This document shows, piece after piece, positions 57,370 through 64,000 of a stretch of DNA of 64,000 nt. Position numbers and translations under genes: made by a program. Below the pieces are notes generated by a model. That model did no database searches, was not told where the DNA came from, and was given only the letters and a program-made list of their open reading frames with translations. Position 1 is the first letter of the stretch; each line of letters begins with the position of its first letter. The DNA comes from Mustelus asterias (lineage: Eukaryota), in NCBI RefSeq assembly GCF_964213995.1, contig NC_135801.1, positions 24,862,001-24,926,000 of the forward strand, given 5' to 3'.

Positions 57370-58014
57370 TTCATTGATTAAAGATGCAACCGAGGGCATG
57401 ACATAAATATGACGTTCCATGAGATGCATATGCATTGGTTAAGATTGTTGACTTGAGAAAATCAGTGATTCTTGAAGAAGTAGCGGGCTAAATTGGACAG
57501 TCCCTGAAAACGGGCATGGGGGCTCATGATGCGCGATCGCCCTGCACACATTCGATGTGATGCAGGCAGCACGCCAACTTCATATTGCCTGCTCAATGCC
57601 CATGACTGTTGTGTTTGTATGAACTGCATTGTTGAATGGTTGCATGTCTGAGCATGGGGCCCAAAATCATGGCAATTAGTGTTAGTTAAAGCTGGCCTGT
57701 ATTATTTAAAAGTGTTGTGGCCGGCGCAGTTTTTGGAAGCCCTTGCAGGAGACCATCTTTCTCTACAGATGCTGCCTGACCTGCTGAGTCCTTCCAGCAT
57801 TTTCTATTTTCATTTCAAATTTCCAGAATCTTCAGCGTTTTATTTTTGTGTAAGCACTTTCTACATGAATTGCTGTCAAAATGTATTGCATAAGAATAAC
57901 ACCTCTGCAGTGAATTTTTGCACACAGTCTTATTGCATCTTCTCAGCTTCTCAAAGAGATTAGGCTTAAACAACCAAAATTGGAGTGCCCAGTCACATCT
58001 TGTGGATGGACATT

Positions 58015-58380
58015 TGTGGTGAACCATCGTTGGTTCCCACCAGGTAGTACTGAGCCAGGGTCTGGCCAGTACTATGAGTCTGTATATATGTTGCTGTTGG
58101 GGTTAGGGTTGGGTTGTTCTACTTGTTACTGTTGGGGTTAGGGTTGGGTTGTTCTACTTGTTACTGTTGGGGTTAGGGTTGGGCTGTTCTACCTGTATTA
58201 TAGTTATTATGGTACATCCCAGTCGGGCTCCGCCTCCTGGGAGAGGTATAAAGGTCACTGCTCTGTCTGGGACCCCTCAGTCTGGGATCGTGTACTATAT
58301 ATGGTAGCTTCATTGTAATAGTAGATAAAAGCCTTTATTTCCTTGAGCATCTCTAGCCTCGTGAGTTATATCGCGCATCA
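58015..58380 (+). repeat. 5' LTR (366 bp)
   Basis: TG..CA; TATAAA at 58247, Inr-like tcagt at 58277; three 35-bp units. Confidence 0.95.
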
Positions 58381-58441
58381 ATTTTATTTACTATTAATTG
58401 AACTCTCGTCATTAAAAAAAAAGGAAAACGATACAGAGAGT

Positions 58442-59200
58442 ATGGAGCAAATGTTAAAACCCGAACGTCTTACACTGGACCCACGTGCGGCGGGCGCCTG
58501 TAACACCTTCGACCACTGGTTGAAATGTTTTCAGGACTACCTTGCAGCCTCCGCAACGGTCACCACAGACGACGACAGACTCCGGGTCCTCCACGCGAGG
58601 AGCGACGCTGTATATTTAGCGATCCGTGCGGCCACCGACTACAAAGGGGCCCTCGAGCTTCTTAAGAAGCGCTACATTAAACCGCCAAACGAGATGCATG
58701 CTCGATATCTTTTAGCCACTCGACGACGGCAGCCCAGCGAAACGACGGAACAGTACGCGTGCGAGCTTCTGCAGCTAGCCAGGGGCTGTAGCTGCAAAGC
58801 AGTGTCGGCAGACCAGAACATGAATGACTTCGCTCGAGATGCGTTTGTGGCGGGAATCGGATCATCTTATATCCGACTCCGACTGTTGGAGCAAGGTAAT
58901 CTCGATCTCACTAAGTCAATAGAACTAGCGGATACGTTGGAGACGGCCTCCAAAAGCCTAGCGTTGTATATCGAAGACCACGTGGAGACAGCGTGGCAGG
59001 AGCAGTCGCAGATCCCACCTCGTCCCTCGGGTCCGAAAAGCTGCGTGATGGTGTGCCCACACTCGGGCCTGACGACGGCAACAGCGGTGTTACTTCTGTG
59101 GGGGAGTGAAGCACACTCGGCAGCGATTCCCCGCTAAAGCGGTGTTGTGCTCCGCCTGCGGCAAGAATGGGCATTATTCGAAGGTATGTCGATCCAAACT
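58442..59200 (+). pseudogene. gag, frameshifted near 59090
   Basis: MEQMLKPERL..ARYLLATRRRQ..RDAFVAGI; out-of-frame CYFCG and CSACGKNGHYSKVC knuckles. Confidence 0.85.
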
Positions 59201-59249
59201 TACTTCCAGGAACAGCAGTGCGGCCTGAGACTCCCCGGAGCCGGGTTCC

Positions 59250-62200
59250 TTGTCGTCGGCATCGTCGAGGGTTTCTTCCACATGCGAGGCCAGGACGTCG
59301 CCATTACAGACGACGGAGTCGCAAGAGACGCGCGACCACCAGAGGTCGCTGATTTTGGCGCCATCGCCCACGTGCGACCTATGGGAGCAGCCATTTTGGT
59401 TGGCACCGACCGCGAACGACCAGCAGGGGTCATCTTCATCCATCTCAGCTGCCTGCAGTGGCGCTCACGAACCAACGGTGGCGTCGATCATCCTGGACCA
59501 GGCAAAGCCTCACAGACTCGACAAGTCCATGATGGACATACAGGTAAACAAACGCTTGATTTATTGTCTGTTTGACAGCGGGAGCACGGAGAGTTTTATT
59601 CACCCAGATGCTGTGAAGCGGTGTGGCCTCCAGATCCAACCTGTCAAGCAGACGATTTCGATGGCATCAAGGTCCCGGTCTGTCACCGTGCTAGGGAGTT
59701 GCGTGGTAAATTTAACGGTGCAGGGCACGGTTTACGAGAGCTTCAAGCTCCTGGTGTTACCGCACCTTTGCGCGCCAATACTCCTCGGACTAAATTTCAT
59801 GGTCCACTTGAAGAGTGTAACCCTACAGTACGGTGGGCCACTCCCTCCGCTTTCAGTGGGAGAACAGCAGCCTCCAAATTGCCCAACGCGTCCCGCCTGT
59901 AGCCTCACGACGCTGAAGATTACCACACCCTTCCTATTCCAGAATCTCGTGCCAGGCTGCAAGCCCATCGCGACTAAGAGTAGGCGTTACAGCGCTGAGG
60001 ATCGGATCTTCATTCGATCTGAGGTTCAGCGGCTCCTCAAGGAAGGGATCATACAATCTAGTGCTAGTCCTTGGAGAGCGCAGGTCATGGTGGTCAAGAG
60101 TGGGAACAAACCCCGGATGGTCATTGACTATAGTCAGACCATTAATAGATACACGCAGCTGGATGCGTATCCCCTCCCGCGCATATCTGACATGGTCAAT
60201 CAGATTGCACAGTACCGGGTGTTCTCCACCATCGACCTAAAGTCTGCCTACCACCAGCTCCCCATTCGCCCAGAGGACCGACAATACACGGCTTTTGAGG
60301 CGGATGGTCGCTTGTACCATTTTCTAAGGGTTCCTTTTGGTGTCACCAATGGGGTCTTGGTCTTCCAGCGTGCTATGGACCGAATGGTGGACCATAACGG
60401 ACTGCGGGCTACCTTCCCGTACCTGGATAACGTCACCATCTGCGGCCATGACCAGCAGGACCACGATACCAATCTCCTTAAATTCCTACGCACTGCATCT
60501 CGCCTGAATCTGACCTACAACAGGGAGAAGTGTGTATTTCGTACGCGCCGCCTAGCCATCCTCGGATACGTGGTGGAAAACGGGGTCATCGGCCCTGATC
60601 CAGACCGTATGCGTCCCCTCCTTGAACTTCCCCTGCCCACTAGCGCAAAAGCACTGAGAAGATGCTTAGGCTTCTTCTCTTACTACGCACAGTGGGTTCC
60701 CAATTACGCGGACAAAGCCCGTCCACTCATCAAGTCTACCTCTTTTCCCCTAGCACCAGAGGCTCGGTTGGCCTTTGATAAACTAAAAGCCGACATCGCG
60801 AAACCCACGATGCACGCTGTCGATGAGACCATCCCCTTTCAGGTGGAGAGCGATGCATCTGATTTCGCCCTGGCTGCCACACTTAATCAGGCGGGCAGGC
60901 CCGTCGCCTTTTTTTCTTGCACCCTCCAAGGCCCCGAAATTCAACATTCAGCGGTGGAAAAGGAGGCCCAGGCATTGGCGCCATTACTTGGCGGGAAAAC
61001 GGTTCACCCTGATCACGGACCAGCGGTCCGTGGCGTTCATGTTCAATAACACGTTACGGGGCAAGATCAAGAACGACAAGATCTTGAGGTGGAGAATTGA
61101 ACTCTCCACCTATAATTACGACATCATGTATCGTCCAGGGAAACTCAACGAGCCCTTGGACGCCCTGTCGCGTGGAACATGCGCCAGTATGCAGGAGGAC
61201 CGTTTGCAGGCTCTCCACAATGACCTCTGCCATCCAGGGGTCACTCGGCTCTACCACTTCGTAAAAGCCCGGAATCTACCCTACTCGGTGGAGGATATCA
61301 GGTCCATAACGAGAAGCTGCCGGGTATGCGCGGAATGCAAACCGCACTTTTACCGACCTGACAGGGCACAACTTGTCAAGGCCACTCGTTCCTTCGAAAG
61401 ACTGAGTGTGGACTTTAAGGGCCCCCTTCCCTCGACAGATCGGAATGTGTACTTCCTCATCATCATTGATGAGTACTCGAGATTCCCTTTTGTCATTCCC
61501 TGCTCTGATACGACCGCTGCCACGGTTATCAAGGCATTTCGTGATCTTTTCACCCTGTTCGGGTACCCCTGCTACATCCACAGCGATAGGGGCTCGTTGT
61601 TCATGAGCGATGACTTGAGGCAATACCTGCTCTCATACGGGATTGCCTCTAGTAGAACCACGAGCTACATCCCTAGGGGTAACGGACAGGTGGAACGTGA
61701 GAATGCTACAGTCTGGAAGGCTGTCTGGAAGGCTGTCTTACTGGCGTTGAAGTCAAAAAGCCTTCCAGTCTCCCATTGGCAAGAGGTGCTCCCTGATGCG
61801 CTCCACTCCATACGCTCACTCCTGTGTACGGCAACCAACGCTACTCCCCATGAGAGGCTGTTTTTATTCCCTGGAAGTCTTCCTCTGGGACCTCATTACC
61901 GTCTTGGTGCCCGTACTCAGGACCTGACCTCCTGCGGCGACATGTTAGGGCCCGCAAGTCCGACCCTTTGGTTGAACAGGTCCAACTCCTCCACGCCAAC
62001 CCCCAGTATGCCTATGTGGTATACCCTGACGGGCGAGAGGACACGGTCTCGATTCAAGACCTGGCGCCAGCAGGGGACTTGGAAACCCCTGTCGCTCCCA
62101 TACCTCCTGTTAGAGATCCCCCAACTATTGTTTCCCCTCCTGACATGGCGCGGGCAGCATCGGGACCATCACTTAACCCTTTTACTCCCATGTACAGCTT

Positions 62201-62411
62201 GCCTGAGTCCAGGAGATGGTCGCCACTTCAAGGCGTGTCTGAACTCAACAGATTTTCATCACCTCGGGGTCAACCGGCCCGTGAGACAGTGGAGGAACCG
62301 TTGGACATCGCCTTGGGGAGAACGCCACCGCGAGTGCCTACTCCGGTGTCATCGCCGGTGTTGAGGAGGTCACAACGACAGTGCGGTCCCCCTGACCGTC
62401 TGAACTTATAG
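59250..62411 (+). pseudogene. pol: protease, RT, RNase H, integrase (frameshifts near 60975 and 61870)
   Basis: LFDSGS; IDLKSAYHQ, PFG, YLDN; SDASD; H-x4-H..CRVC, VDFKGP, IDEYSRF, HSDRG, NGQVER. Confidence 0.92.
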
Positions 62412-62478
62412 ACTGATGACAAATTATTCTGTGTTTTTTTTGTACCCCGCCGGCCTTTTTCTTCAAAGGAGGGGTGAA

Positions 62479-62809
62479 TGTGGTGAACCATCGTTGGTTC
62501 CCACCAGGTAGTACTGAGCCAGGGTCTGGCCAGTACTATGAGTCTGTATATATGTTGCTGCTGGGGTTAGGGTTGGGTTGTTCTACTTGTTACGGTTGGG
62601 GTTAGGGTTGGGCTGTTTTACCTGTATTATAGTTATTATGGTACATCCCAGTCGGGCTCCGCCTCCTGGGAGAGGTATAAAGGTCACTGCTCTGTCTGGG
62701 ACCCCTCAGTCTGGGATCGTGTACTATATATGGTAGCTTCATTGTAATAGTAAATAAAAGCCTTTATTTCCTTGAGCATCTCTAGCCTCGTGAGTTATAT
62801 CGCGCATCG
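62479..62809 (+). repeat. 3' LTR (331 bp)
   Basis: Matches the 5' LTR apart from about 5 substitutions and one 35-bp unit; intact AATAAA; ends CG rather than CA. Confidence 0.95.
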
Positions 62810-63659
62810 ACATTACAAATAGCAAACAAACTTAAATGTTCTGAATGATTTGAATTATGATAAACTGTAAAAAGGGGATTGTTATCATTTGAGCGAAGAA
62901 CTGTGTCACTTTGTCACGATGACACCATGTACAAACAACTTGGTAATAAGTTTCATTGGGAACTGTGTACTTTGGGCTGTATTTCCTGCTAACACCCACC
63001 TCTGACTAAAAAGTCAGTCGGGATTCCACACATGAAAGAGCTGGCTGCCTCACAGCCATTTTATGCTCCGGGAGCATTTATTGGCTCAGGTTAGGACTTC
63101 CAGCCCCATTTGGGGATGAACCCCTGTCTTAAAGAGCTTCCAGCCAACCAGGTTGGCTCGCAGCTTTGTCATACCAGCAGTGCCATGTTCGATTGGTGGC
63201 CACTAGTTGGACTAGTCACCCATCACAAACAAGAGGAAGTTATGGAAGCTGGACTTCGGGAAAGTCCAGGATATCAACAGGAATTGGCTGGCAAGCCCCA
63301 ATGGCAGGGGTCAGGGGTTGGAAAGGATCATGTTTGAGAGAGTGGTGTGGGGGTAGGGTTAAATGGGGTTATGACCTGGTGGGGAGATGCCTCTAATGGA
63401 TACCAATACCCTGCCAAAGGAGATGCACTCCCCTTCTTGCCAGACACAGCTTGCCAAGTAAAACCTGTTGAGCTACCCTCTGCCTATACTGTGGTAAAAT
63501 AGTGGTGGGGCAGGAAGAGGTACTTAATTGGCTATTAATTGCGCACTGAAAGGCCTCAATAAACCCAAGGGTGAGCGGGCACCTCCACTGCCACCCTGTA
63601 AAACAGGTCAGAGATGGTTGGGAAGTTAGCAACCAGGCGCTGCATGTTACACCATCAAA

Positions 63660-64000
63660 AACACTGGCGGAAGGCTCTGTATCTGAATGCCCATAGCATT
63701 TGAAACAAAACAGATGAACTGATAGTGTAAATAGAAATAAATAAGCACAGTCTGAAAGCCATTACAGAGACCTGGCTGCAGGGTGACATAGATTGGGACT
63801 TGAATATTGAAGGGTATGTAATGTTTCGGAAGGACAGGATGTTCGGAAAAGGTGGAGGGGTGGCTCTGTTAATTAATGATGGTAGCAACACAATAGAACA
63901 GGATAGGCTAAGTTCAGCAAACCAGGATGTAAAAACGGTCTGGGTTGAGATGAGAAATGATAATGGCAAGCAGTCACCATGGGATTAGTGCATGTACAGG
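63660..64000 (+). mobile_element. CR1 APE endonuclease fragment running off the window
   Basis: LYLNAHSI, AITETWL, FRKDR..KGGGVALL, VWVEMRN. Confidence 0.85.

Follow-up and report, generated by a model that had tools for sequence, protein, structure and literature searches.

A Ty3/Gypsy retrotransposon clade whose primer-binding site is complementary to a segment of its own LTR

A Gypsy element with a self-complementary primer-binding site

The window analysed here, a stretch of 64,000 nucleotides from the Mustelus asterias genome, carries an LTR retrotransposon in which the stretch at the primer-binding site (PBS) position is an exact reverse complement of a segment in the R region of its own LTR. 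This complementarity is real, extends across the clade to which the element belongs, and represents a variant of self-priming and not a new kind of priming. Some form of self-priming is very probably used by these elements. Judging from the sequence patterns described below, the likely route is that the PBS would pair with the element's own R segment, that the RNA would be cut after ..AATAAAA, and that the cut end would be extended as primer.

The element occupies positions 58015-62809 between two unstranded ACATT target-site duplications, the left one (58010-58014) being identical in all five bases to the right one (62810-62814). On the plus strand it comprises a 366-bp 5' LTR of the TG..CA form (58015-58380), a gag-pol region (58442-62411), a polypurine tract with its spacer (62465-62478) and a 331-bp 3' LTR of the TG..CG form (62479-62809). 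Pfam searches on the frames of gag-pol, which is split into several frames in this copy, recovered protease, reverse transcriptase (RT), RNase H and integrase in the Gypsy order. LTRs, target duplication, polypurine tract and domain order are thus all present, and the element is a Ty3/Gypsy LTR retrotransposon; the best solved relative is the Ty3 RT (E 7e-29). The two LTRs differ by 5 mismatches over 331 aligned bases. Additionally, a 35-nt tandem unit containing TTAGGG-like words is found in U3, with three copies in the 5' LTR (58089-58196) and two, one fewer, in the 3' LTR. A frame at the end of the window (63655-63988), with an ITETWL motif, resembles the N-terminus of a LINE endonuclease.

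As the initial annotation had stated, there is no TGG one base past the 5' LTR; a single spacer A (A58381) is followed directly by the PBS (58382-58396, plus strand). The PBS is complementary at 15 of 15 nt (100%) to the R segment of the 3' LTR (62745-62759), in which AATAAA is intact at 62754-62759. The corresponding segment of the 5' LTR (58316-58330), predicted to form the 3' end of the self-primer, also covers the poly(A) hexamer and carries the A-to-G change reported earlier; this G, at 58324, is private to the window copy among 27 copies. These 27 are the copies with a recognisable anchor among the 30 best, which were picked by likeness to the window, and both arms were exact in 21 of them. 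The whole family amounts to 2103 candidates, with 311 exact ordinary LTR-PBS junctions in the genome.

Fortuitous pairing between A+T-rich stretches, or else an artefact of assembly, was considered as an explanation, A and T making up 13 of the 15 bases in the segment. It is refuted and retains practically no probability: none of 2000 block-shuffled LTRs reached a complementarity of 12 nt (maximum 11, against 15 observed), the junction recurs exactly 311 times, pairing covaries between families (see below), and contigs of independent sequencing runs carry the window family together with paired variants. Specifically, the paired changes 58318G with 58394C and 58323C with 58389G have the depth of the only contig from run X7 that reaches across both arms.

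Comparison with host tRNAs, at both 3' ends and internal positions, gave matches of no more than 9 nt to the window PBS among 86 sequences representing only 7 amino-acid types. The 9-nt match was to two variant tRNA-Thr(AGT) copies, with the terminal A run lying outside the match. In a control, the PBS of another host Gypsy family matched tRNA-Thr over 15 nt. Because TGG is absent, priming by a tRNA 3' CCA end is excluded. A young host Gypsy family (L194-L199 and L210), with frames of up to about 2000 amino acids, has a PBS matching tRNA-Thr.

Covariation of the LTR and the PBS across families

Scans of metagenome and genome contigs yielded 89 related loci, 51 of which were testable, retaining the start of gag together with 110 or more bases upstream of it. 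A perfect LTR/PBS stem of 11-19 bp was found in 41 of these 51 loci, six others had the same layout with substitutions, and four had no recognisable segment. One representative was then kept for each of 32 families; these representatives were selected for showing the stem, so that 41/51 is the unbiased count.

The alignment of related families for compensatory LTR/PBS changes that the initial annotation had proposed bears out the pairing, as the letters differ and the pairing is kept across the 32 representatives. Their own stems measured 11-19 nt (median 14), whereas 992 cross-family combinations of segment and PBS gave a median stem of 4 and a maximum of 12. About 30 distinct PBS sequences were present, each matching its own LTR only. 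The elements follow a fixed order, with a segment ending in TAAA, mostly GCC or ACC, U5, CA, one spacer A and the PBS. GCC or ACC stands right after the segment in 26 of 32 representatives, the spacer is a single A in 29, TGG at the PBS position was seen in none, and the helix begins 1-2 nt past the LTR end throughout. By comparison, 10 control loci of two other host Gypsy families had best stems of only 5-7, with TGG visible in 9.

The host genome alone contains at least five families with a self-complementary PBS. Within a family, a paired change was found between L056 and L052. In host family C, a C/G or T/A pair was concordant in 13 of 13 copies, although this concordance may be due to descent and count as one event. 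In two loci with a self-complementary PBS, L089 and L094, the spacer measures 2 nt and the segment is not followed by GCC, possibly a junction variant inside the clade. Relatives L111-L119 were located in contigs filed under bacterial metagenome-assembled genomes, which are most likely host DNA in bacterial bins.

Predicted start site, leader fold and poly(A) signal

The TATA box and start site proposed in the initial annotation were supported to the extent that both motifs are present: TATAAA (58247-58252) and a TCAGT initiator (58277-58282) lie 32 nt apart, with A58279 as the predicted start. The same TATA-to-initiator spacing of 32 nt is found in host families A (that of the window), B and C; the initiator pattern was not matched in host families D and E. 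From the predicted start to the segment end the distance is 52, 74 and 51 nt in families A, B and C, respectively. The segment is thus predicted to lie 36-59 nt inside R, unlike the first 11 nt used by Tf1.

An arrangement of the plain Tf1 type, in which the packaged transcript starts at about 58316, its first 15 nt act as primer and the TATA box and initiator serve another transcript, would correspond to Tf1's own mode (PMC7175516), and an alternative start could exist. We nevertheless regard it as distinctly unlikely. Three families share the 32-nt spacing but differ in how far away the segment end lies (52, 74 and 51 nt), and no TATA lies 30 nt upstream of 58316. The first base of two copies, L144 and L162, lies 2-4 nt upstream of the predicted start, which is a weak hint for that start; both are fused to one and the same host repeat, presumably Penelope-like by its appearance, and their ends may be deletions.

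The 15-bp helix (58316-58330 with 58382-58396) was present when the leader was folded, in the minimum-energy structure and in the centroid structure alike, although the total folding energy was no better than that of shuffles (z -0.21). A second helix starting at GCC had a pairing probability above 0.5 in 23 of 32 families, but was weak in the window's family, at 0.41 and 0.26. The alternative fold of AATAAA with the adjacent TTTATTT (58334-58340), suggested earlier, appeared, weakly, only when the 3' R was folded. A search of Rfam with 57900-58600 gave no match at all, and so no known ribozyme or tRNA-like element.

The helix had also been proposed to mask the 5' poly(A) signal. This is plausible for the 21 of 32 families whose segment terminates in AATAAA or ATTAAA; in the other 11 the pairing is kept with no hexamer at the segment end, 3 of them having a strict hexamer downstream, outside the helix, and 5 a weaker poly(A) variant. 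Because these 11 families keep the pairing, masking is not the clade-wide reason for it and may be an incidental advantage in roughly two out of three families. A stronger version, in which hiding the 5' poly(A) signal is the main role of the helix and a host RNA (a tRNA fragment or another small RNA) or another route serves for priming, could draw on the 21 families with the hexamer and on the 9-nt tRNA-Thr(AGT) match, found in a tRNA set of 7 amino-acid types. It seems less probable still than a plain Tf1 arrangement, because the helix starts 1-2 nt past the LTR end, at the place where the end of a primer has to lie, the PBS sequences match only their own LTRs, the 9-nt tRNA match leaves out the terminal A run, and the hexamer-less families, including the 3 with a strict hexamer outside the helix, keep the pairing.

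Aberrant insertions that break at the end of the segment

A primer derived from R would be expected to produce copying errors in which antisense R is attached to the LTR end. Searches of the host genome for exact junction patterns, five in all with one each for families A to E, returned 15 matches, with 6 in family A, 8 in family C, 1 in family E and none in families B and D. In family A these 6 extended junctions stand against 311 ordinary exact junctions. The family-A matches were initially expected to be merely longer PBSs, an expectation that was dropped when they proved to be palindromes instead.

Six complete palindromes were recovered, five from family A and the one match from family E (L150, L152-L155 and L214). 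Each consists of a whole LTR, an A and an inverted R-U3 that runs from the segment end, giving an insertion of about 600 bp with two U3 ends, and all six are flanked by 5-bp target duplications. Two further copies, L151 and L156, are of the same type with one end lost. The palindrome arms differ at 2-9 scattered sites, and both arms share private variants. Read as products of copying, the palindromes show that the match between segment and PBS was used in register, and by themselves they do not identify the priming RNA.

Of greater weight are five family-C LTRs, which carry 24 nt inserted exactly at AATAAAA^GCC, made up of a T and 23 nt of the copy's own U5 in inverted orientation. The inserts mirror the U5 variants of each copy, of which there are three types. 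The target duplications of these insertions are perfect in three cases and have a single mismatch in one, and one insertion is interrupted in U3. The breaks coincide with the predicted cut site of the window element (..AAAA^GCC, 58330/58331, plus strand), after which GCC or ACC follows in 26 of 32 families. These letters support, without proving, a reading in which ..AAAA-T would be the joint between primer and DNA and the return at GCC would mark the end of the strong-stop DNA, folded back on an imperfect hairpin. At their return point the fossil joints have a microhomology of 1-3 nt, and the family-C letters could instead come from a double template switch of the plus strand.

The same insertions bear on which RNA supplies the primer. 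Priming could be by the R copy at the 3' end, or by that of another packaged RNA, cut after AATAAAA, with the 5' R remaining intact. The 3' copy is identical in sequence and pairs equally well with the PBS, and a primer bearing U3 would directly yield palindromes running from the PBS into antisense R and U3. This source appears improbable, though less so than the other alternatives considered here. In the five family-C insertions the sense strand resumes exactly at GCC, as if the 5' template ended there; the private variants shared by palindrome arms fit copying within one molecule; and the cis helix is present in the minimum-energy and centroid folds. We accordingly retain the 5' R of the same RNA as the probable primer.

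Two other matches are more complex (L158 and L162), L158 being a rearranged insertion with a target duplication. L156 and L158 each have arms that disagree at the segment's C/T site, and in these two cases it is the arm on the PBS side that fits the rest of the haplotype. No palindromic joint was listed among the contigs of four sequencing runs, contigs of a kind that cannot show transcript starts or ends.

Proposed priming route

The earlier proposal of tRNA-independent self-priming from a segment inside R is backed by the clade-wide covariation, by the predicted start upstream of the segment and by the insertions that break at the segment end. In the route that we favour, transcription would begin at A58279, and the RNA would form the helix between 58316-58330 and 58382-58396, generally accompanied by another short helix that begins at GCC. 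By analogy with Tf1, the RNase H of the element would cleave between 58330 and 58331, and the capped upstream piece of the 5' R, about 52 nt long, would act as primer. The loop between the two arms (58331-58381, plus strand), comprising the end of R, U5 and the spacer A, is the predicted template of a minus strong-stop DNA of about 51 nt, which would jump via the short part of R that extends from the cut to the poly(A) site. The primer would also be copied into the plus strand, so that every cycle would regenerate the PBS out of the LTR.

Taken together, these observations suggest a combined reading that we put forward tentatively, at somewhat less than an even chance. In a widespread animal Gypsy clade without a chromodomain, self-priming would have evolved apart from the Tf1/sushi group; the RNA would be cut inside R right after the poly(A) hexamer, a capped fragment of 50-75 nt would prime, and the PBS would be rewritten each cycle. 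The same helix would hide the 5' poly(A) signal, and the RT would mostly have YLDN in place of YxDD. The joint between primer and DNA and the end of the strong-stop DNA would be kept as integrated fossils, making the cut site readable from DNA alone.

If true, self-priming in a large animal clade from a site that is internal and linked to poly(A) would amount to a second Gypsy solution. Such a route may also provide an escape from tRNA competition and from silencing by tRNA 3' fragments, and would explain why PBS finders miss these elements. Moreover, the aberrant insertions lead to a prediction of the cut site and of the strong-stop length at the level of single bases.

Lineage and comparison with known systems

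The absence of a chromodomain noted in the initial annotation was upheld, as no chromo match was found by Pfam in the window frames or in five long relatives, or in the precomputed domains of 120 relatives. In an RT tree of 50 rows, which included no Tf1, sushi, Mag or CsRn1 reference, the window element, 32 loci labelled self-complementary and 7 named proteins formed one clade (support 99/97). The labelled loci include L200 and L201, which belong to families B and C and are mutated, their stems being short. The clade stood apart from two other host Gypsy families; with three groups only, the sister relation cannot be read from this tree. The closest named RT relatives came from sharks and rays (71-82%), followed by those of corals, a damselfly and the nematode Trichuris (57-66%), a pattern that points to a cartilaginous fish as the probable host.

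The RT catalytic motif of the window element is YLDN (60429-60440 region, in the frame 59229-61049). Among 120 relatives, Y[LMI]DN was found in 97 and DD in 20, with 3 unread; the other host Gypsy families mostly have YLDD. A literature search on the YLDN motif gave only unrelated papers, and two scans of viral contigs found no relatives.

Experiments have demonstrated self-priming in Tf1, and the trait is regarded as characteristic of the Tf1/sushi chromoviruses and of a few predicted plant groups. In Tf1, the RNA's first 11 bases anneal to the PBS and are cleaved off (PMC7175516), RNase H cutting after the duplex (PMC7175516, PMC10085805, PMC4600332). Like the window element, Tf1 and Tf2 of Schizosaccharomyces pombe, Tj1, Tosmo1-3, Tcry1 and the Tf1/sushi chromoviruses are described as having no tRNA site, a PBS matching their own 5' LTR RNA and extra helices adjoining the primer duplex. 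However, the Tf1 primer is nt 1-11 of the RNA, whereas the predicted primer of the window clade ends 51-74 nt past the cap, either at the poly(A) signal or close to it. In the 'pretzel' described for these elements, sequence adjacent to the PBS pairs with the LTR, while the second helix of the window clade is mostly a local hairpin in the loop. The Tf1/sushi group is described as carrying a chromodomain and none was found in the window clade, whose RT motif, mostly YLDN, is also unlike that group. Although it would work like Tf1, the element should be kept out of the Tf1/sushi group.

Among plant elements, self-priming has been predicted for Tcn1 (Gypsy chromoviruses) and for TAR, Houba and Osr-1 (Copia), by a rule of at least 10 bp of complementarity starting 0-5 bp past the LTR (PMC6317226). 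The same rule describes the window element, which has no TGG and 15 bp of complementarity between the PBS and its own 5' LTR; Tcn1, TAR, Houba and Osr-1 belong to other lineages and hosts. The position of their primers relative to the start site is not discussed in the part of PMC6317226 consulted. Saci2/lennie and ta-TRIM, considered as possible relatives, were dropped, as tRNA sites are described for them. The comparison further drew on parts of PMC6238403, PMC2774666, PMC6934838, PMC5006619, PMC5443660, PMC12471100 and PMC4558846.

In the literature searched, which lay outside Repbase Reports and most subscription papers, no account was found of the priming of this clade or of palindromic or fold-back insertions. 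Repbase Reports reportedly contain entries on self-primed invertebrate Gypsy families, and the basic observation would already be recorded there if the clade is covered.

The description of the element as 'Mag-like' is unproven. Its RT is only about 31-35% identical to that of the host's short-LTR family with a TGGCG PBS, which we take to be Mag-type by its motifs; that family has a TGG PBS and lies outside the window clade, which forms a long-branch clade of its own. An extra RT residue (DYSQTIN, compared with DY-RTLN in Ty3) is common to the window element and this host family. Short LTRs, a mostly 5-bp target duplication and a compact size are shared with the Mag lineage as tabulated for Culex (PMC3286476); in contrast, the Culex Mag elements have a PBS for tRNA-Leu, -Ser or -Arg (PMC3286476), and the window clade has none of these. 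Another point of likeness concerns the CsRn1 clade. Its members are tRNA-primed. The LTR start of the window element, TGTGGTG, fits the CsRN1 5' motif TGTGGYG (PMC3601003, Table 3), whereas many relatives in the window clade start with TGTTG or TGATG instead.
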